From the IMG/VR virus record IMGVR_UViG_2648501392_000012: a stretch of DNA of 24,753 nt. One strand, 5' to 3'. This document shows positions 9,121 through 23,852 of the stretch, piece by piece. A model generated the notes under the pieces. The model ran no database searches, was not told where the DNA came from, and worked only from the letters and a program-made list of their open reading frames with translations. Numbering within the stretch: position 1 is the first letter of the stretch; every line of letters begins with the position of its first letter. The position numbers and the translations under genes are program-made. Origin of the DNA: a virus (taxonomy: Duplodnaviria > Heunggongvirae > Uroviricota > Caudoviricetes).

Positions 9121-9293
9121 ATGAATATTGAAGACTTAAAAACAAAAGCAGAAGCAGATATTTCTGAATATATAACAAAAAAATTATTGAACTTAAGAAA
9201 AAGACCGGGAAAGAAGTTACCAGTATTCAGTTTACCGCACGGGAAAAAATGACGGGTCTTGAAAGCTATGATGTCAAGATTAATTTAATCTGA
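9121..9293 (+). pseudogene. gnsB: gnsB/gnsA-like gene split by an apparent 1-nt frameshift
   Basis: Frame 1: MNIEDLKTKAEADISEYITKKLLNLRKRPGKK... stops at 9250..9252; a second frame continues ...KEVTSIQFTAREKMTGLESYDVKINLI* to 9293, matching the Gns C-terminus (FTAREKMTGLESYDVKI); the shift falls in an A-rich run near 9200..9215. Confidence 0.5.
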
Positions 9294-9444
9294 TGTATTC
9301 AATAATAAAATTTATCCATAAACCTCGTTTTTACGGGGTTTTGTTATATTTGAATGGTTCCGAATATCTAAATCACAATTGTTGATGGTTTTTATTAAAC
9401 CAATGCAGTCCGGCTCAGGAGTGAGAGAAGCCGGACGTTATGGT

Positions 9445-9891
9445 TTAGCGTGGTAAGATCTGTGTAGTTTTCTGGATGCTTTCAGTAATTTTCTGGATGC
9501 TTTCAGTAAATAGTAATGAGTTATCAAAGGCATAGTAATATCTTTGGTGTTCCTGGATATTTGTAACCCATCGGAAAACTCCTGCTTTAGCAAGATTTTC
9601 CCTGTATTGTTGAAATGTGATTTCTTTTGATTTCAACTTATTATAGGAGGTCTCTATAAGATGTTTGTTTCTGGAGAATTTAACATTTACAACCTTTTTG
9701 AGTCCTTTTACTAACACTATGTTGTCGTTTTCTAACACAATGTGAATATTATCTGTGGCTAAATAGTAAATATAAAGTGAGACATTGTGACGTTTTAGCT
9801 CAGAATAAAATAATTCACAGTTTAAATCTTTACGCACTTGATCGAATATTTCTTTAAAAATGGCAGCCTGAGCCATTGGTAAACCTTCCAT
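9445..9891 (-). CDS. ydfO: YdfO-like DUF1398 protein (148 aa) with an internal 7-codon tandem duplication near the C-terminus
   Basis: Protein ...[44 protein letters not shown]; assigned from recalled YdfO sequence and Qin gene order. Confidence 0.7.
9468..9509. repeat. Perfect 21-bp tandem duplication (TTTTCTGGATGCTTTCAGTAA x2) inside the ydfO-like gene
   Basis: Counted directly: 9468..9488 is identical to 9489..9509; in-frame, giving [14 protein letters not shown]. Confidence 0.9.
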
Positions 9892-10176
9892 GTGATACGA
9901 TGGCGCGTAGTTAGCATTATCGTGTTTATTGTTTCAATCTGGTCTGACCTCTTTGTGTTTTGTTGATGATTTATGTCAAATATTAAGCCTGTTTTTAATG
10001 AATAGTGTTGATTGCGTAACAAAATTGAGCCTTGCTGGCATCCAGGAGGGATATGCAACCGACAGATGTATGTAAGGTCGATGTACTCAAACTTTCATAC
10101 TTTTCCTCTTTTATGCAGTAAGATTTGAAGTAATATTTTAACCGCTAGATGACGAGCAAACGCATGGAGCGACAAA

Positions 10177-10383
10177 ATGAATAAAGAACAATCTGCTGAT
10201 GAACTCTCGTTGGATCTGATTCGTGTAAAAAATATGCTTAATAGCACCATTTCTATGAGTTACCCGGATGTTGTAATTGCATGTATAGAACATCAGGTGT
10301 CTCTGGAAGCATTCAGGGCAATTGAGGCAGCGTTGGTGAAGCACGATAAGAATTCGAAGGATTATTCCCTGGTGGTTGACTGA
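10177..10383 (+). CDS. Hypothetical 68-aa protein
   Basis: [71 protein letters not shown] with GGAG 7 nt upstream of ATG. Confidence 0.5.
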
Positions 10384-10744
10384 GCACCATAACTGCTAAT
10401 CATTCAAACTATTTCACCTGTGACAGAGTCAATATCGCATTCTGTCACTGTCAGGCTAATACAGAGCTGCAATTCAACTACTGCAATGTCCTCGTAATTA
10501 GGTGAATTTACAATATCGTCCTGTTCGGATGCCGGTTGCATTGCTGAAGATGAGGCATTTATGGTTCGCATATTTTCCCCTCATGCTCGTCAGTCCTGTG
10601 CGTAGGAAGAAACAGGACACTCACACTAATTTGTGTGGGCATGCTGTGATGTCCTTCTGAATTATTCCTATGCCATTATGTAAAGCGCTGTATCAGATGC
10701 TCATCACGGCTGTCAGGCTGTCGGGTCCTCCCGGTGGGGGCCCC

Positions 10745-10900
10745 TGCCACGGGGCGGGAGCGTCGCGGAAAAAGGCTAGTTTTTGCATTTCCATGGCGGC
10801 GGCAGCATGTTTGGTAATTTATTGATAATTAAAAGTTATTTCTCTTTTTACCTGTACAATATTTTTTTCTCCCTGTCATTAGACCAGTTTGCAATTAATT
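10745..10900 (+). other. Putative cos packaging-site region (cosN-like GC-rich core plus T-rich TTTCTC elements) upstream of the small terminase gene
   Basis: GGGGCGGGAGCGTCGCGG at 10751..10768 resembles lambda cosN (GGGCGGCGACCTCGCGGG); downstream TTATTTCTCTTTTT and TTTTTTTCTCCCTGTC resemble cosB R elements; position matches lambda organisation. Confidence 0.3.
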
Positions 10901-10947
10901 GAAATATATAAATAAACATGATTTTCACCTGCCAGATGGAGTTGCTT

Positions 10948-11475
10948 ATGTCAAATGTGAGCGGGATCGGTGATGCTTATTACTGGAGTGTTTTTAAAAT
11001 CGCTGAGGCCTTTGGGCTTCACCGGGACACAGTAAAAAAACGGCTCCTCGCGGCCAACACTCCTGTGGCTGCGACTATCAGGGGGAACCCCGTTTACGCC
11101 CTGCAGCATGTCGGGCCAGCCCTGTTTAGTGTGAAGCATGAGGCAGCAGACTCTGTTCATGATCCATCCCGTATGGAGCCGAAAGAGAGAAAGGACTGGT
11201 ACCAATCTGAAAATGAAAGGATCAAGCTGGAAAAGGAGCAGCGAAAACTCATCCCCGTTGATGAAGTAGTCATCGTCTATTCGTCCATGAGAAAGGCTGT
11301 CGTCCAGGTTCTGGAGACAATTCCGGATGTTCTTGAACGCGATTGCGCCCTGACTCCTCAGGCCGTCGGCGTTGTGCAGCAGGCCATTGATGACCTGCGA
11401 TACACTCTTCAGGAAAAATCCTACGAGGCTTGTGCTGCTGAATTAATTCCTGATGAGGAAGGAGAGAGTCTCTAG
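10948..11475 (+). CDS. Terminase small subunit (Nu1-like DNA-packaging protein)
   Basis: About 175-aa acidic protein immediately upstream of the gpA-type large terminase; N-terminal HTH-like region (YWSVFKIAEAFGLHRDTVKKRL); GGAG 7 nt before ATG 10948. Confidence 0.65.
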   Translation: MSNVSGIGDAYYWSVFKIAEAFGLHRDTVKKRLLAANTPVAATIRGNPVYALQHVGPALFSVKHEAADSVHDPSRMEPKERKDWYQSENERIKLEKEQRKLIPVDEVVIVYSSMRKAVVQVLETIPDVLERDCALTPQAVGVVQQAIDDLRYTLQEKSYEACAAELIPDEEGESL

Positions 11476-11483
11476 GAGGAATA

Positions 11484-13583
11484 ATGGGTTTTTCATCAGC
11501 CCGAAATTTGGGAAGGGACATATCGGCAGGATTTTCCCCACCACGTCGCATGCCGATTTCGGAGGCTGTTAAAAAATTCATGCGTGTTCCCAAGGGGGCT
11601 GGTAACTCGGTGCCATGGGATCCTGAACTGACACCCTACATCATTGAGCCCATGAACTGCCTGGCATCGCGTGAATACGATGCGGTGATTTTTGTTGGTC
11701 CTGCGCGAACAGGGAAGACCATTGGTCTGATCGATGGATGGATTGTCTATACCATCGTTTGCGATCCTTCGGACATGCTCGTTGTGCAGATGACCGAAGA
11801 TAAGGCCCGCGAGCATTCTAAAAAGCGCCTCGACAGAACGTTCAGAAGCAGTGCGGCGGTAAAGAAAAGAATGAGTCCACGTCGTAACGACAATAATGTC
11901 CATGATAAGACGTTCAGGGATGGCTCGTTCCTTAAAATTGGTTGGCCCTCGGTCAACATTATGTCGTCGTCGGATTACCGGTTTGTCGCCTTAACCGATT
12001 ACGACCGTTTTCCGGAGAATATCGACAGCGAGGGTGATGGTTTCTCCCTGGCCTCAAAACGTACCACCACATTTATGTCCGCCGGGATGACTCTGGTGGA
12101 GAGCTCGCCGGGACGTGACATCTGCGACAGCAAATGGCGACGTAAGTCGCCTCATGAAGCGCCACCGACGACTGGTATTCTTTCCCTTTACAATCGTGGT
12201 GACCGCCGCCGCTGGTACTGGTCATGTCCGCACTGCGGTGAATATTTTCAGCCAGCCATGGATGCCATGACCGGCTACCGTAATGAACCGGATCCCTTTA
12301 AAGCCAGTGAGGCGGCGTATCTACTTTGCCCGCACTGCAGCGGCATTATCACTGCGGAGAAAAAGCGTGAGCTCAATAGTGCAGGAGTCTGGTTGCGTGA
12401 AGGTCAGGTCATTGATCGTAACGGCAACGTTTCCGGTGAACCGCGCCGCTCCCGTATCGCCAGTTTCTGGATGGAAGGGCCAGCTGCTGCGTATCAGACC
12501 TGGGCGCAACTGGTTTACAAATTACTGACTGCAGAACAGGAGTATGAAGCGACAGGAAGCGAAGAAACACTCAGGGCGGTTATCAACACCGACTGGGGAT
12601 TGCCTTATCTTCCTCGTGCCAGCATGGAGCAACGAAAAAGTGAACTGCTTGAGCAGCGGGCAGAGCCAGTTCCTTCCCGCAGTGTGCCGGATGGCGTTAA
12701 TTTCCTTGTGGCGACAGTGGATGTGCAGGCGGGACGTCATCGCCGTTTTGTGGTTCAGGTAACGGGCTATGGCAGTCGTGGCGAACGCTGGATTATTGAT
12801 CGTTACAACATCACGCAGTCATTGCGCAGTGACTGCGACGGGGAGAGCCAGCGAATTGATCCGGCCAGCTATCCGGAAGACTGGGATGTCCTGCTGACGG
12901 ATGTTTTTCATAAAAGCTGGCCGCTGGCCTCCGATCCTTCTCAACAAATGCGACTGATGGCAATGGCGGTGGACTCCGGCGGTGAAGACGGGGTCACTGA
13001 TAATGCCTATAAATTCTGGCGTCGTTGCCGTCGTGATGGCCTTGGTAAACGTATTTACCTGTTTAAGGGTGACAGCATCCGGCGCGCAAAACTGATCAGC
13101 CGTACATTCCCTGATAACACCGGACGAACGGGCCGCCGGGCGCAGGCCGCAGGTGATGTGCCGCTCTGGCTTCTTCAGACGGATGCCCTGAAAGACCGGG
13201 TGAATAACGCGTTATGGCGTGACTCGCCAGGTCCAGGCTATGTGCATTTCCCTGACTGGCTGGGGAGCTGGTTTTACGACGAACTGACGTATGAAGAGCG
13301 GAGCAGTGACGGGAAATGGAGTAAGCCGGGTCGCGGTGCCAACGAAGCTTTTGACCTGATGGTGTATGCCGAGGCTCTGGTCATTCTGCATGGATACGAA
13401 AAGATCCGCTGGCCGGATGCACCGGAATGGGCGAGCCGGGAGACCTGGCTGGAGTGTGTCCAGGACAGTACCGAACCGTCATCCTCACCGGAACCGGTAT
13501 CCACGCCTGTTAAAAAACAAAAACGGAAGAAAACAGTAACTGACGATGTTAACCCCTGGCTGACTTCCGGAGGATGGTTATGA
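11484..13583 (+). CDS. Terminase large subunit, lambda gpA family
   Basis: 699-aa ORF; Walker A motif VGPARTGKT; AGGAGG ribosome-binding site; CxxC...CxxC segment (CPHCGEYF...CPHCSG) as in gpA. Confidence 0.9.
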   Translation: MGFSSARNLGRDISAGFSPPRRMPISEAVKKFMRVPKGAGNSVPWDPELTPYIIEPMNCLASREYDAVIFVGPARTGKTIGLIDGWIVYTIVCDPSDMLVVQMTEDKAREHSKKRLDRTFRSSAAVKKRMSPRRNDNNVHDKTFRDGSFLKIGWPSVNIMSSSDYRFVALTDYDRFPENIDSEGDGFSLASKRTTTFMSAGMTLVESSPGRDICDSKWRRKSPHEAPPTTGILSLYNRGDRRRWYWSCPHCGEYFQPAMDAMTGYRNEPDPFKASEAAYLLCPHCSGIITAEKKRELNSAGVWLREGQVIDRNGNVSGEPRRSRIASFWMEGPAAAYQTWAQLVYKLLTAEQEYEATGSEETLRAVINTDWGLPYLPRASMEQRKSELLEQRAEPVPSRSVPDGVNFLVATVDVQAGRHRRFVVQVTGYGSRGERWIIDRYNITQSLRSDCDGESQRIDPASYPEDWDVLLTDVFHKSWPLASDPSQQMRLMAMAVDSGGEDGVTDNAYKFWRRCRRDGLGKRIYLFKGDSIRRAKLISRTFPDNTGRTGRRAQAAGDVPLWLLQTDALKDRVNNALWRDSPGPGYVHFPDWLGSWFYDELTYEERSSDGKWSKPGRGANEAFDLMVYAEALVILHGYEKIRWPDAPEWASRETWLECVQDSTEPSSSPEPVSTPVKKQKRKKTVTDDVNPWLTSGGWL

Positions 13584-13792
13584 ACCAGAATGATATCGAA
13601 GCCATGATTCAGCGTTATACGGAAGCTGAAATGGCGGTGCTGGACGGAAAATCCGTCACCTTTAATGGTCAGCAGATGACCATGGAAAACTTATCTGAGA
13701 TCCGGCAGGGACGGCAGGAGTGGGAGCGCCGCCTTGCGGCTCTGATTACACGACGACGGGGGCATCCCGGGTACCGGCTGGCGAGGTTCTGA
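13574..13792 (+). CDS. Head-tail joining protein, lambda gpW-like
   Basis: 72-aa ORF between terminase and portal; C-terminal ...RRRGHPGYRLARF parallels the lambda W C-terminus (...QRRRGPAGFYV). Confidence 0.7.
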   Translation: MVMNQNDIEAMIQRYTEAEMAVLDGKSVTFNGQQMTMENLSEIRQGRQEWERRLAALITRRRGHPGYRLARF

Positions 13793-15300
13793 TGGCAATT
13801 CTTGATGATGTGATTGGCGTTTTTTCACCAGGATGGAAAGCAGCAAGGCTGCGTTCCCGTGCGGTGATCCAGGCTTATGAGGCCGTAAAAACGACGCGGA
13901 CACACAAAGCCCGACGGGAGAACCGAACTGCCGACCAGTTAAGCCAGTACGGGGCCGTGTCGTTACGTGAGCAGGCCCGTTACCTTGATAACAACCACGA
14001 TCTGGTTATTGGTGTATTTGACAAGCTGGAAGAACGGGTGGTGGGGAAAAACGGGATTATTGTCGAGCCACATCCGGTATTACGCAATGGGGCCATTGCC
14101 CGTGACCTGGCTGCGGAGATTCGCACCCGATGGAGTGAATGGTCTGTCAGCCCGGAAGTCACCGGGCAGTTTACCCGTCCGATGCTGGAACGTCTGATGC
14201 TTCGTACCTGGCTGCGCGATGGTGAGGTGTTTGCCCAGATGGTTTCCGGGCGCATAAACAGCCTGGCGCCTTCTGCCGGTGTTCATTTCTGGCTGGAGGC
14301 GCTCGAGCCGGACTTTATTCCCATGACCAGTGATGAGAGCAACAGGCTGAATCAGGGCGTGTTTGTTGATGACTGGGGGCGTCCCGAAAAATATCTGGTG
14401 TATAAAAGCCGTCCCGTATCCGGACGGCAGATGGAAACCAAAGAAGTGGATGCAGAGCGAATGCTGCATCTTAAATTTGTTCGCCGTCTGCACCAGATGC
14501 GCGGGACGTCTTTGTTGTCCGGTGTGCTGATCCGCCTCAGTGCCCTGAAAGAATATGAAGATTCTGAGCTGACTGCAGCAAGGATCGCCGCTGCTCTGGG
14601 GATGTACATCCGGAAAGGCGACGGGCAGAGCTATGAACCGGATGGTAATGGCAGAAAGGAGAATGAACGTGAGCTTACCATTCAGCCGGGCATTATTTAC
14701 GACGATCTGAAACCCGGCGAAGAAATCGGAATGGTGAAGTCGGATCGCCCCAATCCTAACCTTGAAACTTTTCGTAATGGTCAGTTGCGTGCCGTGGCGG
14801 CGGGCAGTCGTCTGAGTTTTTCCAGTACAGCGCGCAACTATAACGGCACTTACAGCGCCCAGCGTCAGGAGCTGGTTGAATCCACTGATGGCTACCTGAT
14901 CCTGCAGGACTGGTTTATTGGTGCCGTCACCCGCCCGATGTATCGTGCATGGCTGAAACAGGCTGTGGCATCCGGTGTTATCAGGCTACCCCGCGATCTT
15001 GACCGTTCTTCACTGTATACCGCGGTGTATTCCGGACCAGTGATGCCGTGGATTGACCCTGTTAAGGAGGCTGAGGCCTGGAAAATCCAGATTCGTGGTG
15101 GAGCGGCGACAGAATCAGACTGGGTACGTGCTGGTGGTCGTAATCCGGATGATGTCAAACGTCGGCGCAAGGCCGAAATTGATGAAAACCGCAAGCTGGA
15201 TCTGGTATTTGATACCGATCCGGCCAGTGATAAAGGAGGCAGTAGTGCCGCAACGAAACGACAGGAGCCGCAGCACACCGACGACCAGTCCGAAGAATAA
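13792..15300 (+). CDS. Portal protein, lambda gpB family
   Basis: 502-aa ORF from ATG 13792, overlapping the gpW stop (TGATG); size and position match lambda portal. Confidence 0.85.
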   Translation: MAILDDVIGVFSPGWKAARLRSRAVIQAYEAVKTTRTHKARRENRTADQLSQYGAVSLREQARYLDNNHDLVIGVFDKLEERVVGKNGIIVEPHPVLRNGAIARDLAAEIRTRWSEWSVSPEVTGQFTRPMLERLMLRTWLRDGEVFAQMVSGRINSLAPSAGVHFWLEALEPDFIPMTSDESNRLNQGVFVDDWGRPEKYLVYKSRPVSGRQMETKEVDAERMLHLKFVRRLHQMRGTSLLSGVLIRLSALKEYEDSELTAARIAAALGMYIRKGDGQSYEPDGNGRKENERELTIQPGIIYDDLKPGEEIGMVKSDRPNPNLETFRNGQLRAVAAGSRLSFSSTARNYNGTYSAQRQELVESTDGYLILQDWFIGAVTRPMYRAWLKQAVASGVIRLPRDLDRSSLYTAVYSGPVMPWIDPVKEAEAWKIQIRGGAATESDWVRAGGRNPDDVKRRRKAEIDENRKLDLVFDTDPASDKGGSSAATKRQEPQHTDDQSEE

Positions 15301-15313
15301 TTCCTGGTTCAGG

Positions 15314-17272
15314 ATGCAGGCTGGTCACCAGAGTGACGCGGATATTTATATTTATGACGAGATTGGTTTCTGGGGTGTTACAGCGAAGCAGTTTATCAGT
15401 GATCTGAATGCACTGGGCGATATCACCCACATTAATCTCCATATTAATTCACCGGGTGGCGATGTCTTTGAAGGCATCGCCATTTTTAATGCGCTGAAAA
15501 CACATGGTGCGTCCATTACCGTTTATGTCGACGGTGTGGCGGCGTCAATGGCGTCGGTCATTGCGATGGTAGGAAACCCGGTCATTATGCCGGAAAACAC
15601 CTTCATGATGATTCATAAACCATTTGGCTTTACGGGCGGTGATGCGGAGGACATGCGCACCTATGCCGACCTGCTCGATAAAGTTGAGGCGGTTCTGTTA
15701 CCCGCTTATGCACAGAAAACCGGGAAAACCACCGATGAAATTGCTGCCATGCTGGCGGATGAGACCTGGATGTCCGGTGCCGAATGTCTGGCACAGGGAT
15801 TTGCTGATCAGGTGACACCAGCCGTTAAGGCAATGGCATGTATTCAGTCAAAACGTACAGAGGAATTTAAAAAGATGCCGGAATCCATTCGAAATATGAT
15901 TACTCCGCCACGCAACAGTGCTCCACGCGTACAGGATGATGGACCTGCAGCCTCCCGGACGCCAGTGCAGGCAGCAGCACCCGTGGTGGATGAAAACAGC
16001 ATCCGTGCGCAGGTCTTGGCAGAGCAAAAAGCGCGTGTAAACGGTATTAATGATCTGTTTGCCATGTTTGGCGGGCGTTATCAGTCGTTGCAGACTCAGT
16101 GTCTTGCCGATCCTGAATGTTCGCTGGAGCAGGCCCGCGAAAAGCTGTTGAACGAGATGGGGCGCGAGTCCACGCCATCCAATAAAAATACCCCGGCTCA
16201 TATTTATGCCGGTAACGGTAATTTTGTGGGGGACGGGATCCGCCAGGCGCTGATGGCGCGCGCCGGGTTTGAAAAAACTGAACGTGATAATGTCTACAAC
16301 GGGATGACCCTGCGTGAATATGCCCGTATGTCACTGACTGAACGTGGTATTGGTGTTTCCAGTTATAACCCGATGCAGATGGTCGGTGCGGCGTTCACAC
16401 ACAGTACGTCTGACTTCGGTAATATTCTGCTGGATGTTGCGAACAAAGCCATTCTGCAGGGCTGGGAAGATGCCCCTGAAACCTATGAACAGTGGACGCG
16501 GAAAGGTCAGTTGTCTGATTTTAAAATTGCCCATCGTGTGGGTATGGGGGGCTTCAGTGCTCTGCGTCAGGTGCGTGAAGGGGCAGAATATAAATACGTC
16601 ACCACCGGAGATAAACAGGCCACTATTGCACTGGCGACCTATGGCGAGCTGTTCAGTATCACCCGTCAGGCCATTATCAATGATGATCTGAATATGCTGA
16701 CCGATGTCCCGATGAAGCTGGGCCGTGCGGCGAAATCCACTATTGCCGATCTGATTTATGCCATTCTGACGTCTAACCCGAAAATCTCCACAGATAATGT
16801 AAGTCTGTTCGATAAAGCGAAACATGCAAACGTACTGGAGAGCGCGGCAATGGACGTGGCATCGCTGGATAAAGCCCGCCAGTTGATGCGCGTTCAGAAA
16901 GAGGGTGAGCGTCATCTGAATATTCGTCCTGCGTTCGTACTGGTACCGACGGCGATGGAGTCTGTTGCTAACCAGGTCATTCGCTCCTCAAGTGTCAAGG
17001 GGGCTGACATTAACGCCGGTATTATTAACCCGGTGAAAGATTTTGCGACCGTTATTGCAGAGCCTCGTCTTGATGATAACAGCCAGACCACCTTCTACCT
17101 GGCTGCGTCCAAAGGCTCCGATACGATTGAAGTGGCTTATCTCAACGGTGTGGATACGCCATATATTGATCAGATGGAGGGCTTCAGTGTGGATGGCGTG
17201 ACAACGAAAGTGCGTATTGACGCTGGTGTTGCGCCAGTTGATCACCGCGGCCTGGTGAAATGTACGGCGTAA
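15314..17272 (+). CDS. Tripartite capsid gene: ClpP/S49-type prohead protease, scaffold-like linker and HK97-fold major capsid protein in one ORF
   Basis: N-terminal ...IYIYDEIGFWGVTAKQFISDLNAL...INSPGGDVFEGIAIFNALK...VDGVAASMASVIAMVG (ClpP-like); central Ala/Gln-rich linker; C-terminal ~350 aa capsid-like; start placed at the in-frame ATG just after the portal stop. Confidence 0.8.
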   Translation: MQAGHQSDADIYIYDEIGFWGVTAKQFISDLNALGDITHINLHINSPGGDVFEGIAIFNALKTHGASITVYVDGVAASMASVIAMVGNPVIMPENTFMMIHKPFGFTGGDAEDMRTYADLLDKVEAVLLPAYAQKTGKTTDEIAAMLADETWMSGAECLAQGFADQVTPAVKAMACIQSKRTEEFKKMPESIRNMITPPRNSAPRVQDDGPAASRTPVQAAAPVVDENSIRAQVLAEQKARVNGINDLFAMFGGRYQSLQTQCLADPECSLEQAREKLLNEMGRESTPSNKNTPAHIYAGNGNFVGDGIRQALMARAGFEKTERDNVYNGMTLREYARMSLTERGIGVSSYNPMQMVGAAFTHSTSDFGNILLDVANKAILQGWEDAPETYEQWTRKGQLSDFKIAHRVGMGGFSALRQVREGAEYKYVTTGDKQATIALATYGELFSITRQAIINDDLNMLTDVPMKLGRAAKSTIADLIYAILTSNPKISTDNVSLFDKAKHANVLESAAMDVASLDKARQLMRVQKEGERHLNIRPAFVLVPTAMESVANQVIRSSSVKGADINAGIINPVKDFATVIAEPRLDDNSQTTFYLAASKGSDTIEVAYLNGVDTPYIDQMEGFSVDGVTTKVRIDAGVAPVDHRGLVKCTA

Positions 17273-17292
17273 ACGTCGCAGACAACAACTCT

Positions 17293-17317
17293 GATGGCCC
17301 GTAAGGGCTTTTTTTGT
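17293..17317 (+). terminator. Rho-independent terminator after the capsid gene
   Basis: GGCCC-GTAA-GGGCT followed by TTTTTTTG. Confidence 0.55.
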
Positions 17318-17358
17318 ACCTGAAATCAGCCCCTGAACGGGGCTGTGCGGAGACAGTT

Positions 17359-17682
17359 ATGGCAAAGAATTTTGTAGAAGAAGGAAAAACGGTGGCGATT
17401 GTTGCAAGTGCAGCCATCAGCAGCGGAGATCTGGTGCAGGTGGGTGATGTTTTTGCGGTGGCGCTGACCGATATTCCACAGGGAGAAACAGGCGACGGCA
17501 TAACCGAAGGTGTGTTTATGCTGCCTAAGCTGAAAACGGATGACATGAAAACGGGTAAGAAGGTTTATCTGAAGTCAGGAAAAGTTCAGCTGACTAACAG
17601 CGGCTCTGATCCGCTGGTCGGGGTTGTCTGGGCAGATGCCGGAACCAGTGCAGAAGAAGTGCCGGTAAAACTCAATGTCTGA
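17359..17682 (+). CDS. Small head-associated protein (DUF2190-like, 107 aa)
   Basis: ORF MAKNFVEEGKTVAIVASAAISSGDLVQVGDVFAVALTDIPQGETGDG... with GGAG 6 nt upstream; sits between the capsid gene and the head-tail connectors. Confidence 0.55.
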   Translation: MAKNFVEEGKTVAIVASAAISSGDLVQVGDVFAVALTDIPQGETGDGITEGVFMLPKLKTDDMKTGKKVYLKSGKVQLTNSGSDPLVGVVWADAGTSAEEVPVKLNV

Positions 17683-17950
17683 TCCCTTTTCCCGGCTGGC
17701 AGCGCGTATGGATGCGATCACGGTCAGAAAGATGGGAAAGACAGCCTCGATTAATGATGTCGATATGACTGTGATCCCGGGAGAAACACTGGCAGAGCTG
17801 AATGCTCTGTCCGGACCTGCGGTCTCTCTGGTGGTGTTTTCTTCGGGATACCGCCCACGGCGCGGGGATCGCGTTGTTTATGACGGACAACAATGGACGG
17901 TCACACGGCATGAACGTTTTAACGGTAAGCCAATGATCTTTATTGAGTAA
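17675..17950 (+). CDS. Head-tail connector, lambda gpFII-like (91 aa)
   Basis: Shares the ...RRGD...W.V.R... pattern with the lambda FII C-terminal region (PRRGDRVVYDGQQWTVTRHE vs LRRGDTLTIGEENFWVDRV); overlaps neighbours by 8 and 1 nt. Confidence 0.55.
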   Translation: MSDPFSRLAARMDAITVRKMGKTASINDVDMTVIPGETLAELNALSGPAVSLVVFSSGYRPRRGDRVVYDGQQWTVTRHERFNGKPMIFIE

Positions 17951-17961
17951 TGAGGTGTGGG

Positions 17962-18540
17962 ATGAAGGGGCTTGAGAATGCCATCCGCAATCTGAACAGC
18001 CTTGATACCCGTATGGTGCCACAGGCCAGCGCATGGGCGATAAACCGTGTGGCACAGAAAGCGGTCTCGGTTGCCACCCGGCAGGTTGCCGGGAATACCG
18101 TTGCGGGAGATAACCAGGTGAAAGGGATCCCCCTGAAACTGGTACGTCAGCGTGTCCGGGTGTTTAAAGCCAGTCCGTCAGGAAAAATGACGGCCAGGAT
18201 CCGCGTTAACCGGGGCAATCTGCCCGCCATTAAGCTGGGGACAGCCCGGGTCAGACTGGCCCGGCGTGGTGGAAAACTGCAGTACCGTGGCAGTGTGCTG
18301 AAGGTGGGTAAATATCTTTTCCGGGATGCGTTTATTCAGCAACTGGCGAATGGTCGCTGGCATGTGATGCGACGTATTGATGGCAAAAATCGTTACCCCA
18401 TTGATGTGGTGAAAATCCCGCTGTCCGGACCGCTGACACAGGCATTTGAAGATGCCCGCGACCACATCATTGCTGCGGAAATGCCGAAACAGCTGGGGTA
18501 TGCACTGAAACAACAACTGAGGTTATGGCTGACCCGATGA
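17962..18540 (+). CDS. Minor tail protein Z (lambda gpZ-like)
   Basis: MKGLENAIRNLN... and C-terminal ...ANGRWHVMRRIDGKNRYPIDVVKIPLSGPL...LGYALKQQLR closely parallel lambda Z. Confidence 0.8.
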   Translation: MKGLENAIRNLNSLDTRMVPQASAWAINRVAQKAVSVATRQVAGNTVAGDNQVKGIPLKLVRQRVRVFKASPSGKMTARIRVNRGNLPAIKLGTARVRLARRGGKLQYRGSVLKVGKYLFRDAFIQQLANGRWHVMRRIDGKNRYPIDVVKIPLSGPLTQAFEDARDHIIAAEMPKQLGYALKQQLRLWLTR

Positions 18541-18938
18541 ACCGACATACACAAATCCGCCAGGTCGTACTGGCACGCCTTCGGGAACAGTGTGGAGACA
18601 GCGCCACGTTTTTTGACGGGCTTCCGGCATTTGTTGATGCGCAGGAACTGCCTGCCGTGGCGGTGTGGCTGAGTGATGCTCAGTACACCGGAAAAATGAC
18701 GGATGAAGATGACTGGCAGGCTGTTCTGCATATTGCTGTCTTCATCCGGGCACAGGCACCGGATTCAGAGCTGGATATGTGGATGGAGAGCACCATTTTC
18801 CCGGCCCTGAATGATGTACCAGCACTTTCCGGACTCATCGACACCCTGATCCCACTCGGTTTTAACTATCAACGTGATAATGAGATGGCCACCTGGGCGA
18901 TGGCGGAAATCACGTACCAGATCACGTACACGAATTAA
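18537..18938 (+). CDS. Tail terminator protein U (lambda gpU-like)
   Basis: ...ATFFDGLPAFVDAQELPAVAVWLSDAQYTGK...WQAVLHIAVFIRAQAPDSELDMWMESTIFPALNDVPALSGLI... parallels lambda U; start ATG 18537 overlaps the Z stop (alternative ATG 18525). Confidence 0.85.
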   Translation: MNRHTQIRQVVLARLREQCGDSATFFDGLPAFVDAQELPAVAVWLSDAQYTGKMTDEDDWQAVLHIAVFIRAQAPDSELDMWMESTIFPALNDVPALSGLIDTLIPLGFNYQRDNEMATWAMAEITYQITYTN

Positions 18939-18948
18939 GGAGGTGGTA

Positions 18949-19692
18949 ATGACCACACCAAATCCACTGGCAAAAACGAAAGGTGCGGGAACGACGTTCT
19001 GGATGTATACCGGCAAGGGCGATGCGTTTGTGAACCCTTTATCGGACACTGACTGGCTGCGTCTTGCGATGGTGAAGGATCTGCAACCTGGCGAAATGAC
19101 CGCTGATGCAGAAGATGACACTTATCTCGATGATGAAGATGCAGACTGGAAAACGACAACCCAGGGGCAGAAATCAGTCGGTGATACTTCGGCGACGCTG
19201 GCCTGGCGTCCGGGGGACAGCGGGCAGAAAAAACTGGTTCAGTTGTTCGACTCCGGTGAAGTCTGCGCGTTTCGTATCAAATATCCCAACGGTACTGTTG
19301 ATGTTTTCCGTGGCTGGCTGAGTTCACTGGGTAAAACCATTGCTTCAAAAGACGTGATGACCCGCACAGTGAAAATCAGCGGTGTGGGGCGTCCGTATCT
19401 GGCAGAGGAAGGCACTGAAACCGTGGGCGTTACCGGGCTGACGGTGGCACCGGCATCTGCCAGTGTAAAAGTGGGAGCAACCACCACGCTGACCTTTACA
19501 GTAAAACCTGACGGAGCCAGTGACAAAGCGATCAGTGTGCATTCGACAGATCCACAGACTGCCACGGTGACCCTGAACGGGCTTGTGGCCACGGTGAAAG
19601 GCGTGAAGCAGGGCAGTGTCAGCATTGTGGGCATGACTTCTGACGGCGATTTTGTGGCAGTGGCTACGGTGGCTGTCAGCGCCGCAGGTTAA
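18949..19692 (+). CDS. Major tail protein V (lambda gpV-like) with C-terminal Ig-like (Big_2) domain
   Basis: MTTPNPLAKTKGAGTTFWMYTGKGDAFVNPLSDTDWLRLAMVKDLQPGEMTA... nearly colinear with lambda V; AAGGAGG ribosome-binding site. Confidence 0.9.
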   Translation: MTTPNPLAKTKGAGTTFWMYTGKGDAFVNPLSDTDWLRLAMVKDLQPGEMTADAEDDTYLDDEDADWKTTTQGQKSVGDTSATLAWRPGDSGQKKLVQLFDSGEVCAFRIKYPNGTVDVFRGWLSSLGKTIASKDVMTRTVKISGVGRPYLAEEGTETVGVTGLTVAPASASVKVGATTTLTFTVKPDGASDKAISVHSTDPQTATVTLNGLVATVKGVKQGSVSIVGMTSDGDFVAVATVAVSAAG

Positions 19693-19711
19693 CAGGACGA
19701 TACTCATCATT

Positions 19712-19736
19712 TGCCCCGGTTATCCGGGGCTTTTTT
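19712..19736 (+). terminator. Rho-independent terminator after the major tail gene
   Basis: GCCCCGG-TTAT-CCGGGGC followed by TTTTTTG. Confidence 0.55.
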
Positions 19737-19749
19737 GCAGGTGGAGAAC

Positions 19750-20139
19750 ATGATGTTTCTGAAACAGGGCACGTTTAATTATGAAAAGCAGTCCGTGGTG
19801 CTCAGTGAGCTGTCCGGGCTGCAGAGAATTGAATATCTGGCGTTTGTTCAGCAGCGAACGGCAAAGTTTGATGCCGAAGAGGGAGAACTGCCGGAGGCTG
19901 AACGACAGATTGCTTTTCTGCGGATGGGGATGGATATCAATGCCTGGCTGGTTTCCCGCTCACTGTGGAATGCGGAACAGTCTCAGGATGTTGAGACGCT
20001 TTGCGCATCCGTTATTACAACATGGTCGTATGATGCCCTGGGAACGGGGGCGGAGATGGTTCTGTCGCTGAGCGGTATGGGAGCCATTGAGAATGCCGGG
20101 GATTTGGAGCATGAGGTGCTGACGCCGGAAAAGTCCTGA
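19750..20139 (+). CDS. Tail assembly chaperone G (lambda gpG-like)
   Basis: MMFLKQGTFNYEKQSVVLSELSGLQRIEYLAF... parallels lambda G (MFLKTESFEHNGVTVTLSELSALQRIEHLAL...). Confidence 0.85.
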   Translation: MMFLKQGTFNYEKQSVVLSELSGLQRIEYLAFVQQRTAKFDAEEGELPEAERQIAFLRMGMDINAWLVSRSLWNAEQSQDVETLCASVITTWSYDALGTGAEMVLSLSGMGAIENAGDLEHEVLTPEKS

Positions 20140-20477
20140 CGCGGGAAATGCAGTTTGTCATGCGGCTTGCCCGGGAGTTCAGGCGGGCAGACTGGCGGCG
20201 GATGCTGTCGGAAATGTCGGCCACTGAGCTTGGTGAGTGGGGCGATTATTTCCGGATGCAGAGCTTCAGTGATGTGTGGATGGATGCGCAGTTTGCCTCG
20301 CTGAAGGCATTGATCGTGAGAATGGTGTCCGGCAGCAGTGATGCTGCGGTGGCTGATTTCAGCCTTTTACCGGAAGAGAACGGGATACCGGAGCGAACGG
20401 ACGAAGAACTGATGCATCTTGGGGAAGGTATTTCCGGAGGTGTGCGTTATGGACCAGATAGCCAACCTGGTCATTGA
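20130..20477 (+). CDS. T segment of the G-T tail assembly chaperone, probably expressed only as a G-T fusion via -1 ribosomal frameshift near the end of G
   Basis: The -1 frame is open from 20115 and overlaps the last 8 codons of G; candidate slippery heptamer GGAAAAG at 20127..20133; position matches the lambda G/GT arrangement. Confidence 0.6.
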   Translation, partial: KVLTREMQFVMRLAREFRRADWRRMLSEMSATELGEWGDYFRMQSFSDVWMDAQFASLKALIVRMVSGSSDAAVADFSLLPEENGIPERTDEELMHLGEGISGGVRYGPDSQPGH

Positions 20478-23400
20478 TTTGGGGATTGATGCGGCAGAGT
20501 TTAAAAATGAAATTCCCCGTATCAAAAACCTTCTGAATCGTGCAGCCAGCGATGCAGAACGGTCTTCTGCCCGTATGCAGCGTTTTATGGAGCGTCAGAC
20601 TCAGGCCGCCCGGCAGACAACGCAGGCGGCTTCTTCGGCTGCAACAGCCGCATCCGTCCATGCGCAGACGGTGGAGAAGAACGCACAGGCTCATGAACGC
20701 ATGGCCCGCGAGGTGGAGAAAACCCGCCAGCGCATGGAGGCGCTGAGCCAGAAAATGCGCGAGGAACAGGCGCAGGCCATGGCTCTGGCGGAGGCTCAGG
20801 ATAAAGCGGCTGCTGCGTTTTATCGTCAGATTGACAGTGTGAAACAGGCCAGTGCGGGGCTGCAGGAATTACAGCGTATTCAGCAGCAGATCCGACAGGC
20901 CAGAAACAGTGGCGGGATTGGTCAGCAGGATTATCTGGCGCTGATTTCTGAGGTTACTGCGAAAACCCGTGTTCTTACACAGGCTGAGGAAGAGGCTACC
21001 CGACAGAAAGTGGCGTTTATCCGTCAGCTTAAAGAGCAGGCAACCCGCCAGAATCTTTCATCTTCTGAGTTGCTTCGTGCCAAGGCAGCCCAGCTGGGGG
21101 TAAGCAGTGCTGCAGAAGTGTATATCCGCAAAATGGAGCAGGCAGGAAAAGCCACGCATTCGCTGGGTCTGAAAAGTGCAGCAGCCCGCCAGGAGATAGG
21201 CGTTCTGATAGGTGAACTGGCCCGCGGCAATTTAGGGGCGCTGAGGGGATCCGGGATAACGCTGGCTAACCGTGCCGGATGGATAGACACACTGATGTCA
21301 CCGAAAGGCATGATGCTTGGCGGGGTTATTGGCGGTATTGCCGCGGCCGTCTATGGTCTGGGTAAAGCCTGGTATGACGGTCAGAAGGAGGGGGAAGAAT
21401 TTAACCGCCAGTTGTCGCTGACGGGGCATTATGCCGGAGTCACTGCCGGGCAGCTGTGGACGCTCAGTCGTGCTATTTCCGGGAATGGTATCACGCAACA
21501 TGCTGCAGCCGGTGCGCTGGCTCATGTGGTGGGGAGTGGTGCATTTCGTGGAAACGATATCGGTATGGTGGCGAGAGCTGCCGCACAGATGGAGCGATCG
21601 GTTAGCCAGTCGGTCAGCGATACCATAAATCAGTTTAAGCGGCTGAAGGATGATCCTGTAAATGCCGCGAAGGCTCTGGACAATGAGCTGCATTTTCTTA
21701 CTGCCACTCAGCTTGAGCAGATACGTGTCCTTGGGGATCAGGGACGGTCCAGTGAGGCTGCACGGATAGCCATGTCTGCACTGGCAGAGGAAACCGGTCG
21801 GCGTACTGCGGATATTGATAATAACCTCAATGCGCTTGGCAGTACGCTGAAGTATCTGTCTGATTTGTGGAGTCGTTTCTGGGATGCGGCCATGAATATT
21901 GGTCGTGAAGACTCGCTGGATGAACAGATTACCGCTTTACAGGAGAAAGTGTCGTGGGCGAAAAGACTCCCCTGGACGGCATCATCTTCTCAGGTTGAAT
22001 ACGATCAGCAGCGTCTTAACGATCTTCAGGAGAAAAAACGCCAGAAGGATTTGCAGGATGCAAAAGAGCAGGCAGAGCGGAATTATCAGGAGCAACAGAA
22101 ACGACGTAATGCTGAAAATGCTGCACTGAACCGGATGAATGAAACGGAAGCAGCACGACATCAGCGTGAAATTGCGCGTATTAATGCCATGCAGTACGCC
22201 GACCAGGCTGTCAGGGATGCGGCGATACAACGTGAAAATGAACGTTACGAGAAAGCCCTGGCATCCGGTAAGAAAAAAACACGCGAAACCCGTAATGATG
22301 AGGCCACCCGGTTATTGCTGCAGTACAGTCAGCAACAGGCACAGGTGGAAGGACAGATTGCTGCTGCAAGACAGTCAGCAGGCATTGCCACTGAAAAGAT
22401 GACAGAAGCGCATAAACAGCTTCTGGCTCTGCAGCAGCGCATCAGCGATCTGGACGGGAAAAAACTGACGGCAGATGAAAAGAGTGTGCTGGCCCGTAAA
22501 GATGAACTGATTCAGGCACTGACGCTGCTGGATGTAAAACAGCAGGAGCTTCAGAAACAGACGGCACTCAACGATCTGAAGAAAAAAACAATTCAGCTGA
22601 CCAGTCAACTGGCTGAAGAAGAGCGCGCTCAGCGTCAGCAACATGACCTGGATATCGCCACGGTGGGTATGGGTGATCAGCAGCGGCAGCGATATCAGGT
22701 ACAACTGAGTCTTCGCCAGAAATACCAGCAACAGCTGGAGCAGTTGAGGCGGGATAGTGAGCAGAAAGGGACATATAACACGGATGACTACAGAAAAGCC
22801 GAGCAGGCGCTGACGGAGAGCCTGAACCGACAACTGAATGAGAGTCGCCGTTACTGGCAACAGCTTGAAGTTGTGCAGGGTAACTGGAAAAACGGAGTCC
22901 TGCGTGCATTTCAGGATTTTACCGTGGATGCAGACAATACGGCAGGAATAGCAGAACAGGTGTTCTCGTCAGCCTTCAGCAACATGAGAAATGGCCTGGC
23001 AACTTTTGTCACTACCGGCAAACTCAACTTCAAATCCTTCACCTCTTCGGTGCTGTCAGATATGGCGAAAATCCTGGCGCAGGCAACCATGATGAAATCG
23101 ATAAAAGGGATTGGCAGTGTACTGGGATTTGATCTCAGCAGCCTTTCCCTGAATGCCAATGGGGGGATTTATCAGTCTGCTGATTTGGGTCGTTACAGTG
23201 GCACGGTGGTTAACCGTCCGACGTTTTTTGCTTTTGCAAAAGGCGCGGGTGTGATGGGGGAAGCTGGACCTGAAGCCATTCTGCCACTGCGTCGTGGTGC
23301 TGACGGTAAGCTGGGGGTTGTGGCGGATATTGGTGGTTCAGGTATGGCGATGTTTGCCCCGCAGTACAACATCGAGATCAATAACGATGGCACGAACGGG

Positions 23401-23514
23401 CAGATAGGTCCGGCTGCCCTGAAGGTGGTTTATGACCTTGGGAAAAAAGCGGCAGCGGACTTTATGCAACAGCAGGCCCGTGATGGTGGTCGGTTAAGTG
23501 GAGCATATCGGTAA
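20449..23514 (+). CDS. Tail tape measure protein H (lambda gpH-like), 1021 aa
   Basis: N-terminal MDQIANLVIDLGIDAAEF and C-terminal ...INNDGTNGQIGPAALKVVYDLGKKAAADFMQQQARDGGRLSGAYR parallel lambda H; long Gln/Ala-rich coiled-coil core; GGAGG ribosome-binding site. Confidence 0.9.
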   Translation: MDQIANLVIDLGIDAAEFKNEIPRIKNLLNRAASDAERSSARMQRFMERQTQAARQTTQAASSAATAASVHAQTVEKNAQAHERMAREVEKTRQRMEALSQKMREEQAQAMALAEAQDKAAAAFYRQIDSVKQASAGLQELQRIQQQIRQARNSGGIGQQDYLALISEVTAKTRVLTQAEEEATRQKVAFIRQLKEQATRQNLSSSELLRAKAAQLGVSSAAEVYIRKMEQAGKATHSLGLKSAAARQEIGVLIGELARGNLGALRGSGITLANRAGWIDTLMSPKGMMLGGVIGGIAAAVYGLGKAWYDGQKEGEEFNRQLSLTGHYAGVTAGQLWTLSRAISGNGITQHAAAGALAHVVGSGAFRGNDIGMVARAAAQMERSVSQSVSDTINQFKRLKDDPVNAAKALDNELHFLTATQLEQIRVLGDQGRSSEAARIAMSALAEETGRRTADIDNNLNALGSTLKYLSDLWSRFWDAAMNIGREDSLDEQITALQEKVSWAKRLPWTASSSQVEYDQQRLNDLQEKKRQKDLQDAKEQAERNYQEQQKRRNAENAALNRMNETEAARHQREIARINAMQYADQAVRDAAIQRENERYEKALASGKKKTRETRNDEATRLLLQYSQQQAQVEGQIAAARQSAGIATEKMTEAHKQLLALQQRISDLDGKKLTADEKSVLARKDELIQALTLLDVKQQELQKQTALNDLKKKTIQLTSQLAEEERAQRQQHDLDIATVGMGDQQRQRYQVQLSLRQKYQQQLEQLRRDSEQKGTYNTDDYRKAEQALTESLNRQLNESRRYWQQLEVVQGNWKNGVLRAFQDFTVDADNTAGIAEQVFSSAFSNMRNGLATFVTTGKLNFKSFTSSVLSDMAKILAQATMMKSIKGIGSVLGFDLSSLSLNANGGIYQSADLGRYSGTVVNRPTFFAFAKGAGVMGEAGPEAILPLRRGADGKLGVVADIGGSGMAMFAPQYNIEINNDGTNGQIGPAALKVVYDLGKKAAADFMQQQARDGGRLSGAYR

Positions 23515-23843: not shown

Positions 23844-23852
23844 GAGTCTCTG

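Follow-up and report, generated by a model that had tools for sequence, protein, structure and literature searches.

The tripartite capsid gene of Gifsy-2 was reportedly first characterized in 2010, in a study by Effantin et al. in Virology. In HK97, the delta segment of the capsid protein is removed by a co-encapsidated serine protease, and the head is stabilized by covalent crosslinks. The combination of a non-lambda head with a lambda-like tail is standard for the Gifsy-2/cdtI/mEp460/mEp213 lineage (PMC12315714, PMC6471424), and the Gifsy-2 decoration protein is trimeric and located at the 3-fold axes (PMC8538268). The literature searched, which included papers citing the original Gifsy-2 study, yielded no usable processing data.

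Here we analyze a fusion of protease, scaffold-like, and capsid domains encoded in a 24,753-nucleotide stretch of DNA from a virus of the Caudoviricetes (IMG/VR record IMGVR_UViG_2648501392_000012), which is referred to in full as the window.

RESULTS

The gene is a member of a known fusion family

The protein scored 981.8 bits against NCBIfam NF045540 (cutoff, 475), with aa 32 to 674 aligned to profile positions 2 to 651 of 652, and matched PHROG 133 from end to end (aa 1 to 652 against profile positions 12 to 667 of 668). Together with the Pfam matches described below, such agreement is well above what chance would give. Against NF045541, the model of fusions with an S78 protease, it reached 397 bits, which is under the cutoff of 525. 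The protein was 99.5% identical to mEp460 gp05. At the DNA level, the gene was 99.4 to 99.6% identical to the mEp460 records, 98.5 to 98.7% identical to cdtI, HannyBb, Ayreon, and phi458, and 100% identical to loci in two Escherichia coli chromosomes. It was detected in 2,125 of 5,426 complete E. coli genomes (~39%), where PGAP names it as a fusion. Full-length fusions of about 670 to 690 aa numbered in the thousands and occurred in Escherichia, Shigella, Salmonella, Citrobacter, and Kosakonia, while more distant fusions were found in a Klebsiella phage (74% amino acid identity) and a Pseudomonas phage (56%). Given this frequency and the fact that standard annotation already recognizes it by name, the gene is ordinary, an intact member of a known fusion family whose architecture had been described before.

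The open frame probably starts at an upstream GTG

The first-pass annotation had described a single gene of 652 codons without an internal stop. The continuity of the frame was borne out, as ATG 15314 and the stop at 17270-17272 lie in one open frame, and this ATG is the start annotated in the mEp460 GenBank record. The length probably needs revision, to 675 codons from GTG 15245. The features concerned are as follows.

15314..17272, plus strand: open frame of the first-pass annotation, with an ATG start and 652 codons plus the stop at 17270-17272
15245..17272, plus strand: most likely full coding sequence of the ClpP-like prohead protease/scaffold/major capsid fusion, 675 codons, 73.5 kDa
15233..15239, plus strand: Shine-Dalgarno (SD) sequence AAGGAGG, read directly, 5 nt before GTG 15245

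Upstream of ATG 15314 the reading frame is open as far as 15044, and no ribosome-binding site was found before this ATG. The SD sequence and the upstream start are kept in the phages mEp460, 1720a-02, Klebsiella Kp4865-4, and Pseudomonas CF165a, with the same spacing in the first three and in the form GGAGG-N5-ATG in CF165a. The position equivalent to ATG 15314 is not a start codon in either Gifsy-2 or the Pseudomonas phage. An SW(F/Y) motif encoded 5' of 15314 is kept at the amino acid level in relatives, and the PGAP start for the 100%-identical locus is at the position of 15245. Based on the conservation of the SD sequence and start, the SW(F/Y) motif, and the PGAP start, translation more likely begins at GTG 15245 than at ATG 15314, and the coding sequence would then overlap the 3' end of the portal gene at 15245-15300 (56 nt, in another frame). 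As the 675-aa form is favored by the conserved SD-GTG, its numbering is used below unless the 652-codon open reading frame (ORF) is named.

The N-terminal domain is related to ClpP

15314..15829, plus strand: ClpP-type (MEROPS S14-like) head-maturation protease domain, aa 24 to 195
15545-15547, 15614-15616, and 15761-15763, plus strand: predicted catalytic residues Ser101, His124, and Glu173, respectively, from alignment to ClpP

A ClpP/S49-like protease had been proposed for the N-terminal region. The domain search did find a protease signature there, with CLP_protease (PF00574) matching aa 23 to 168 of the 652-codon ORF (E value of 6.5e-36) and NCBIfam NF045542 (Clp_rel_HeadMat) scoring 216 bits (cutoff, 120), so that the ClpP part of the proposal stands. 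S49, a relative of S14/ClpP within the same clan, was rejected: SppA_dom scored 22.3 bits (cutoff, 155), Peptidase_S49 was not among the Pfam matches, and lambda C gave no BLAST match. TIGR00493, the model of bona fide ClpP, gave 58.6 bits, below its cutoff of 308.6. By these profile scores, the protein belongs with the ClpP-related head-maturation proteases rather than with ClpP itself.

A sequence search of the PDB with the whole protein produced 107 matches, and the 60 that were listed were all ClpP, with E values for ClpP reaching 1e-15. The Ser of GxAASM and the His of MIHxP aligned to the catalytic residues of ClpP, and both (Ser101 and His124) were invariant in alignments of the family. 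The Asp that forms the third triad residue in ClpP and MEROPS S14 was not found; instead, Glu173 (xETWMS) lay opposite the triad Asp in both PDB alignments examined. This Glu was kept in all six aligned ClpP-type fusions, and ETW was the majority consensus in an 88-sequence alignment. By alignment, the Glu at the predicted third triad position is a conservative acid-for-acid swap.

A hinge, a variable linker, and a helical segment precede the capsid domain

15830..15910, plus strand: conserved hinge after the protease, AMACIQSKRTEEFKKMPESIRNMITPP, aa 196 to 222, from sequence conservation
15911..15988, plus strand: variable Ala/Pro-rich low-complexity linker, aa 223 to 248, from composition and low conservation
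15989..16198, plus strand: scaffold-like (delta-domain-like) segment of three helices, aa 249 to 318, from an AF2 model
16199..17269, plus strand: HK97-fold major capsid protein domain, aa 319 to 675, 38.9 kDa, from Pfam, AF2, and Foldseek

Identity across the hinge was 100% to 1720a-02, 78% to the Klebsiella phage, 67% to Gifsy-2, and 41% to the Pseudomonas phage. The linker that follows contained indels and was just 24 to 36% identical in relatives that retained 60 to 90% identity in the domains on either side. An Ala/Gln-rich linker had been reported, of which the richness in Ala was correct and that in Gln was not; the measured composition of aa 223 to 248 (Ala, 23%; Pro, 15%; Val, 15%; Gln, 8%) makes it Ala/Pro-rich.

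A full-length AlphaFold model, computed from a 20-sequence alignment in which all sequences were at least 75% identical, had a mean pLDDT of 34.6 and was discarded without a fold search; in this low-confidence model, aa 220 to 249 had no predicted secondary structure. The second AF2 run, on the scaffold plus capsid with 88 diverse sequences, gave a mean pLDDT of 94.1. Helices were modeled at residues 2 to 25, 32 to 40, and 46 to 59 (model numbering) with a pLDDT of 94 to 98, and the pLDDT dipped to 66 to 72 at model residues 61 to 80, after the scaffold helices. In this model, the flexible stretch at about aa 309 to 328 is the predicted maturation-cleavage region. The conserved helical segment after the linker is the actual scaffold candidate, and its function as a scaffold is one that we infer by analogy. 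The same segment adjoins the capsid domain on its N-terminal side whether the fused protease is of the ClpP or the S78 type, and also in relatives of 400 to 470 aa that have no protease. In the protease-less relatives it thus travels with the capsid domain, as the HK97 delta domain does.

The C-terminal domain has the HK97 fold

The proposal of an HK97-fold capsid domain was upheld by several lines of evidence. Phage_capsid_4 (PF25209) matched aa 354 to 649 of the 652-codon ORF (E value of 1.9e-54), and a profile of the capsid domain matched solved capsid structures in the PDB, namely, 8rkc/8rkx (Mu GpT domain; E value of 8e-10) and 9jod (E value of 1e-6); these relatives were found with the capsid-domain profile and were not among the matches listed for the whole-protein search. 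The confident AF2 model gave 360 Foldseek matches to the PDB at an E value of ≤0.001, with encapsulins and phage capsid proteins at a probability of 1.00, and the 50 matches listed of these 360 were all encapsulin or phage capsid HK97-fold proteins or engineered cages. Free-standing homologs (P0221 and P0228) begin at the equivalent of aa 315 to 317, placing the boundary of the capsid domain at about aa 316, with which the dip in pLDDT agrees independently.

The gene lies between portal and decoration genes in a Qin-site prophage

13792..15300, plus strand: lambda-family portal gene, directly upstream (PF05136, E value of 7.6e-82; 64% identical to the Gifsy-2 portal)
17359..17682, plus strand: head decoration (cement) gene, directly downstream (PF09956 Phage_cement_2, E value of 4.3e-20; PHROG 122, "head decoration")
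17296..17316, plus strand: putative terminator, a terminator-like hairpin GGCCC-GTAA-GGGCT with a T-run after the stop

The gene belongs to the late operon of a lambdoid prophage that resembles mEp460 and occupies the Qin site of E. coli. The decoration protein was 62% identical to Gifsy-2 STM1034, and the mEp460 annotation has a rho-independent terminator at the place equivalent to the hairpin.

DISCUSSION

Proposed assembly pathway

We consider it highly probable that the gene encodes a member of the NF045540 fusion family, of the Gifsy-2 tripartite type, in an mEp460-like prophage at Qin, and that its product acts by a mechanism analogous to those of described systems. The mechanism is drawn by analogy from Gifsy-2, HK97, and lambda, from which we infer the processing, the cleavage site, the activation of the protease, and the role of the scaffold. 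Initiation at GTG 15245 would yield a single polypeptide of ~73.5 kDa. The C-terminal HK97-fold domain would build the procapsid shell around the portal, with the helical delta-like segment (aa 249 to 318) serving as an internal scaffold and the flexible Ala/Pro linker anchoring the ClpP-like protease domain of each subunit within the shell. Once assembly is complete, crowding may activate the protease (predicted Ser101/His124/Glu173), which would remove and degrade roughly the first 310 to 325 residues. The capsid protein of ~39 kDa that is left would expand on DNA packaging, and the product of the adjacent decoration gene would stabilize the expanded capsid.

Alternative readings

Expression could instead be nested as in lambda C/Nu3, with an internal in-frame start giving scaffold-capsid or capsid-only products, so that only a minority of subunits would carry the protease. 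Lambda C/Nu3 works exactly so (lambda annotation), and one protease per subunit (~415 per T=7 head) is far above HK97 or lambda. There is also a conserved Met after the protease domain (KKMPESIRN, aa 211), and in Gifsy-2 and the Pseudomonas phage an AGGAG lies before its equivalent at a spacing of 9 nt. However, no SD sequence was found before this Met in the window, 1720a-02, or the Klebsiella phage, and when in-frame ATG, GTG, and TTG codons with an SD sequence were scanned in five relatives, none was conserved. Furthermore, the interior load of 415 × 34.6 kDa (~14 MDa, a rough estimate) would fit a lambda-sized procapsid, and a 1:1 stoichiometry of protease to capsid is therefore physically possible. 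We regard the nested arrangement as unlikely.

A more complex expression of the fusion, for example by internal initiation after the protease or by rare slippage from the portal frame into the open frame that overlaps it at 15044-15300, appears very unlikely. If it did occur, it could tune the ratio of protease to capsid or leave a small number of capsid subunits attached to the portal. No support was found for either event, as SD plus start was unconserved and the junctions of database chimeras were randomly placed. A programmed frameshift from portal to fusion had been suggested by at least ten such chimeras of 1,159 aa and was rejected because their junctions all differ, each lying elsewhere in the overlap.

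The gene might also be a decaying relic in a cryptic prophage, without a present function in capsid assembly. The tail gene K of this Qin-site prophage is cut by an IS66-family element at about 24655, and in a sister strain the lysis region is also interrupted, by an IS3 element. Nevertheless, the fusion ORF is intact, as are the neighboring head and tail genes up to L in the window; across the late region (11580-24655), DNA identity to phage mEp460 is 96.3%, and for the fusion gene, as noted above, 99.4 to 99.6%; and the predicted catalytic residues and the invariant residues are all retained. This makes decay of the gene highly improbable, although this copy may never be used in infectious virions, since K is cut by the IS66-family element. 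The question of a relic concerns the status of this copy and not the identity of the gene.

Finally, an artifactual fusion, in which a frameshift arising in sequencing or assembly, or a lost stop codon, would have merged a protease gene with a distinct capsid gene, has next to no probability and is excluded by the conservation of the fused frame across genera: indel chimeras around the gene do exist publicly (portal-protease-capsid proteins of 1,159 aa and others joined to terminase or tail domains), but the frame is uninterrupted in seven independently sequenced loci at 56 to 100% protein identity (the window, E. coli NZ_CP050998, mEp460, 1720a-02, Klebsiella, Gifsy-2, and Pseudomonas), reaches a query coverage of 80% or more in 1,988 of the complete E. 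coli genomes, recurs in large database clusters (P0014, 8,230 members; P0105, 3,481 members), and is the architecture on which the curated models NF045540 and PHROG 133 were built, while among the 148 cluster representatives nearest in the capsid domain, 81 have a ClpP domain in the same chain (a further 32 are of the S78 fusion type).

Significance

As a discovery, the gene has little value, given the Gifsy-2 precedent, its own NCBIfam and PHROG families, and its place among the commonest E. coli prophage genes. The practical value is in annotation, as names and starts in phage records are inconsistent: the product is variously called "head maturation protease," "protease/scaffold," "Nu3," "protease C," or "major head protein," among others, and the annotated lengths vary between 652, 675, and 707 aa. 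Because shell, scaffold, and maturation protease come from one gene, the family is an attractive minimal system, an appeal already recognized in the literature.

Comparison with known systems

Alignment to the Gifsy-2 capsid gene gave 70% identity over 669 aa, with the same Pfam architecture and the same position between portal and decoration genes, in agreement with the first-pass assignment to the Gifsy-2 tripartite type. Gifsy-2 STM1034.3n (NC_010393, 22471-24561) has the same order of ClpP-like protease, linker/scaffold, and capsid domain, and Gifsy-2 likewise has a lambda-family portal gene upstream, overlapped by the start, and a decoration gene downstream, followed by Z-U-V-G-T-H-M-L. 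The Gifsy-2 protein is longer (696 aa versus 675 aa), with a longer, unrelated N-terminal extension, and its linker is Gln/Pro-rich, whereas that of the window protein is Ala/Pro-rich. The protease halves are just 63% identical and the capsid halves 83%.

The first-pass annotation had further taken a Gifsy-2 head with a lambda-like tail to indicate a mosaic phage. This contrast is false, since Gifsy-2 carries the same lambda-like tail and the tail genes of the window are mostly nearer to Gifsy-2 than to lambda. All late genes, head and tail, are collinear with Gifsy-2 at 40 to 72% amino acid identity. The tail module is of the lambda type, with homologs of Z, U, V, G, T, H, and M in lambda order. 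The lambda slippery heptamer GGGAAAG was not present at the G/T junction. Identity to Gifsy-2 versus lambda was 68% versus 54% for V, 63% versus 25% for H, 55% versus 33% for G, 52% versus 38% for T, 61% versus 54% for M, 53% versus 53% for U, and 43% versus 50% for Z, the only tail gene for which lambda was nearer. The head module is not of the lambda type, as BLAST found homologs of A (TerL; 24%) and B (portal; 23%) alone, both of them distant members of the lambda family, and gave no match in the window for lambda nu1, W, C, Nu3, D, E, FI, or FII. The contrast drawn earlier with the separate C, Nu3, and E genes of lambda therefore holds; by BLAST, neither the fusion nor the decoration protein resembled lambda C, Nu3, E, or D. 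A non-lambda head with a lambda-like tail is not particular to this prophage.

The genes of mEp460 gp05, cdtI gp05 (98.6% DNA identity), and the NF045540-named proteins of E. coli prophages are essentially the same gene as that in the window; the mEp460 and cdtI records use the ATG-equivalent start and PGAP the upstream GTG, and otherwise the product names alone differ. The S78 fusions (NF045541; e.g., Rhodobacter phage RcFrancesLouise gp10) likewise carry their protease in one chain with a homologous scaffold-like segment and a PF25209 capsid domain, but their N-terminal protease belongs to the unrelated HK97/S78 family.

HK97 gp5 similarly has an HK97-fold shell domain and an N-terminal helical scaffold-like segment in one chain. 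Its protease, gp4, is encoded by a separate S78 gene, whereas the window has a ClpP/S14-type protease in the same chain, and where HK97 uses crosslinks, a decoration gene is present in the window. The C/Nu3/E/D system of lambda shares the logic of a protease tethered to the scaffold and a capsid stabilized by a decoration protein, and its TerL and portal are in the same Pfam families as those of the window. Lambda makes three separate products with an S49 protease, in contrast to the single chain with an S14-type protease encoded here.

Reading frame and start codon

The plus-strand frame that carries protease and capsid is open from 15044 to 17272, and the 652-residue chain from ATG 15314 to the stop is uninterrupted, exactly as the first-pass annotation had claimed. 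The single-frame fusion in the window is real, far beyond chance. In an annotated, 100% identical E. coli locus (NZ_CP050998), the coding sequence starts 69 nt upstream of this ATG, at GTG 15245. A perfect AAGGAGG (15233-15239) lies 5 nt ahead of the GTG, and no ribosome-binding site was found upstream of ATG 15314. The Shine-Dalgarno (SD) sequence and start at 15245 are kept in mEp460, in the Stx-type phage 1720a-02 (77% DNA identity) and in Klebsiella phage Kp4865-4, and the equivalent in Pseudomonas phage CF165a is GGAGG-N5-ATG. Among the relatives compared, Gifsy-2 and the Pseudomonas phage lack any start codon where the window has ATG 15314, and an SW(F/Y) motif encoded 5' of this ATG is conserved at the protein level. 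From these sequence features, the gene most likely comprises 675 codons (15245-17272, 73.5 kDa) and overlaps the final 56 nt of the portal gene. Residue numbers follow the 675-residue chain; subtracting 23 gives the first-pass numbering.

Nested expression from an internal in-frame start, as in lambda C/Nu3, is very improbable: the Met that follows the protease domain is preceded by an SD-like AGGAG only in Gifsy-2 and the Pseudomonas phage, and a search of five relatives turned up no conserved in-frame start with an SD ahead of it. A programmed frameshift from the portal frame into the fusion frame was considered since at least 10 database proteins of 1,159 residues, ~99% identical to the window, join portal, ClpP protease and capsid. 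It was rejected, as their junctions are scattered, each different, across a 256-nt overlap (15044-15300); such varied positions point to independent 1-nt deletions or assembly errors, not to slippage at a defined site. This overlap of the portal 3' end with the open fusion frame is unusually long. In other database chimeras, the partner of the fusion is a terminase, tape-measure, L or J domain. Finally, an artefactual protease-capsid fusion is excluded, because the uninterrupted frame is shared by seven independently sequenced loci (56-100% identity) and by thousands of genomes.

Family and distribution

PHROG 133 matches the protein end to end, and the curated NCBIfam model NF045540 is passed with 981.8 bits (cutoff, 475). 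At the DNA level, the gene shares 99.4-99.6% identity with mEp460 records, 98.5-98.7% with cdtI, HannyBb, Ayreon and phi458, and ~77% with Stx-converting phages. Of 5,426 complete E. coli genomes, 2,125 carry it, under the PGAP name [quoted passage not shown] Full-length fusions of ~670-690 residues are plentiful in Escherichia, Shigella, Salmonella, Citrobacter and Kosakonia and also occur in Klebsiella (74% amino acid identity) and Pseudomonas (56%) phages. The proposed kinship with the Gifsy-2 tripartite gene was borne out by NC_010393 22471-24561 (696 residues, 70% identical over 669 residues, identical Pfam architecture). The fusion architecture, rightly spotted in the first-pass annotation, is already well known; we refine its start codon, its protease family and the claim of mosaicism. 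Public phage records present an annotation-consistency problem, giving the gene at least eight product names (including "head-tail preconnector protein Nu3," "head-tail preconnector protease C" and "Major head protein") and product lengths of 652, 675 or 707 residues.

Domain organization of the fusion protein

The domains, all on the plus strand, are as follows.
Residues 24-195, +, ClpP-type protease domain (NF045542, PF00574, ClpP structure matches)
Residues 196-222, +, conserved hinge
Residues 223-248, +, variable low-complexity linker (composition, low identity in relatives)
Residues 249-318, +, conserved helical segment (AlphaFold model)
Residues 319-675, +, capsid domain (Pfam, Foldseek, profile matches)

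The protease had been described as ClpP/S49-like, of which the ClpP half holds: PF00574 matched residues 23-168 of the 652-residue chain (E=6.5e-36), NF045542 ("head maturation protease, ClpP-related") scored 216 bits (cutoff, 120), and matches to solved ClpP structures reached E=1e-15. S49 membership was rejected, given an SppA score of 22 bits (cutoff, 155) and no BLAST match between lambda C and the window protease. In the alignments, Ser101 (GVAASMAS) and His124 (MIHKP) fell opposite the catalytic Ser and His of ClpP. The triad Asp position was occupied by Glu173 (15761-15763; Glu150 in the 652-residue numbering; motif xETWMS), which was retained in 6 of 6 aligned ClpP-type fusions, a set spanning E. 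coli to Pseudomonas; ETW was the majority consensus in an 88-sequence alignment, and the adjoining Asp172 was not conserved. Glu173 is predicted to replace the ClpP Asp as the third triad residue.

The linker is 23% Ala, 15% Pro, 15% Val and 8% Gln, and shows 24-36% identity with indels, compared with 60-90% for the flanking domains in the same relatives. An AlphaFold model of residues 249-675, built from 88 diverse sequences (mean pLDDT, 94.1; pTM, 0.80), has three helices in 249-318 and then a confidence dip at ~309-328 before the capsid domain. A capsid-domain search returned 10,631 cluster representatives (50% identity, E<=1e-3), and the nearest 148 were assigned to architecture classes.

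Architecture of the nearest 148 capsid-domain representatives
ClpP-like domain within the same chain: 81
Different N-terminal domain, Peptidase_S78 (HK97-type protease): 32
Short N-terminal extension only: 24
Other long N-terminal region (>250 residues): 4
Bare capsid proteins or fragments: 7

In each of the three classes with a fusion or an extension, the 249-318 segment could be detected directly N-terminal of the capsid domain. In protease-less proteins of 400-470 residues it forms the N-terminal extension, with the same topology as the HK97 delta domain. The survey thus makes residues 249-318 a candidate delta-like scaffold module. Since two free-standing homologues (P0221 and P0228) start at the equivalent of residues 315-317, coinciding with the flexible stretch in the model, maturation cleavage is placed at ~305-330, and the capsid protein remaining would be ~39 kDa. 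Elsewhere the PF25209 scaffold-plus-capsid lineage is fused to the unrelated S78 protease (NCBIfam NF045541), as in Rhodobacter phage RcFrancesLouise gp10 (L008); given such fusions in 32 of the 148, this capsid family is joined to two different protease families, and delta-capsid and bare capsid forms exist too.

The HK97-fold capsid domain in frame with the protease was found as proposed (PF25209, residues 354-649 of the 652-residue chain, E=1.9e-54), along with a weaker Mu-like gpT match. The 249-675 model had 360 Foldseek matches in the PDB at E<=0.001, and each of the 50 listed was an HK97-fold encapsulin shell, a capsid protein of a phage or virus, or an engineered cage. A sequence profile of the capsid domain matched solved Mu-GpT-type capsid proteins (8rkc/8rkx, E=8e-10; 9jod, E=1e-6). 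The gene is also mosaic within itself. Up to residue ~390 (window ~16400-16450) its nearest relative is 1720a-02 (protease 90%, versus 63% for Gifsy-2), and from there to the end it is Gifsy-2 (often 90-100% per 30-residue segment, versus 40-80% for 1720a-02). This switch implies an earlier recombination with its breakpoint in the capsid domain.

Proposed assembly

The adjacent gene has a part in this proposal.
17359-17682, +, decoration gene (PF09956, PHROG 122)

On the model of Gifsy-2, HK97 and lambda, the HK97-fold domain would bring fusion chains together on the portal, with the delta-like helices and tethered protease facing the procapsid interior. Crowding would switch on the protease, the N-terminal 310-325 residues would be degraded and lost, and packaging would expand the shell, which the decoration protein would cement. 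The Gifsy-2 head is T=7. If the same applies here, one protease per subunit would put roughly 415 x 34.6 kDa, or ~14 MDa, inside the shell, an amount that a lambda-sized procapsid could accommodate on a rough estimate of volume. According to a passage of PMC8538268, Gifsy-2 carries decoration protein trimers on its 3-fold axes.

Prophage context

The window is 100% identical over 636-6622 and 99.9% over 6618-24753 to the Qin-site prophage of NZ_CP050998, whose IS3 element, at the position of window ~6620, is absent from the window; its late region is 96.3% identical to mEp460. A lambda-K-like tail gene (C40 peptidase; ~24557-24753) is truncated after ~33 codons, at ~24655, by an IS66-family (ISEc22-like) element beginning near 24656, so the prophage is probably defective; the fusion gene itself is intact. 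Between the antiterminator and terminase genes, ~4500-10500 is low in GC (33-44%, versus 52-56% in the late operon) and holds Qin-type cargo, including, by correspondence with the annotated identical locus, cspF, cspB, lysis genes, cspI, ynfN and gnsB. A short GC hairpin with a T-run (17296-17316), annotated in mEp460 as a rho-independent terminator, lies immediately past the fusion stop, ahead of the decoration gene; its position is odd, as it separates two proteins required in similar amounts, and it is presumably read through under Q antitermination.

Comparison with Gifsy-2 and lambda

Late proteins of the window were each compared with their Gifsy-2 and lambda counterparts.

Amino acid identity (%) of window late proteins to Gifsy-2; to lambda
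TerS: 40; no match
TerL/A: 72; 24
W-like: 49; no match
Portal/B: 64; 23
Fusion: 70; no match (C, Nu3, E)
Decoration: 62; no match (D)
91-residue ORF: 45; no match
Z: 43; 50
U: 53; 53
V: 68; 54
G: 55; 33
T: 52; 38
H: 63; 25
M: 61; 54

Among the window proteins tested, BLAST detected no counterpart of lambda FI or FII. The 91-residue ORF (17675-17950) is called a "DNA breaking-rejoining protein" by PGAP and a "minor tail protein" both by PHROG 153 and in the mEp460 record. It had no Pfam or NCBIfam match, and its position after the decoration gene and before Z suggests that it may be a head-tail joining (FII-like) protein.

Gene order among the Gifsy-2 matches was identical throughout. The first-pass annotation had read a Gifsy-2 head with a lambda tail as making this phage mosaic; the tail is indeed lambda-like, but the Gifsy-2 tail is lambda-like as well, and the contrast stands only in an older, lineage-wide sense. 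Gifsy-2 is cited, in a passage of PMC6471424, as an example of head and tail modules that differ in origin, and the head-plus-tail combination of the window is standard for the Gifsy-2-type lineage and already in the literature.
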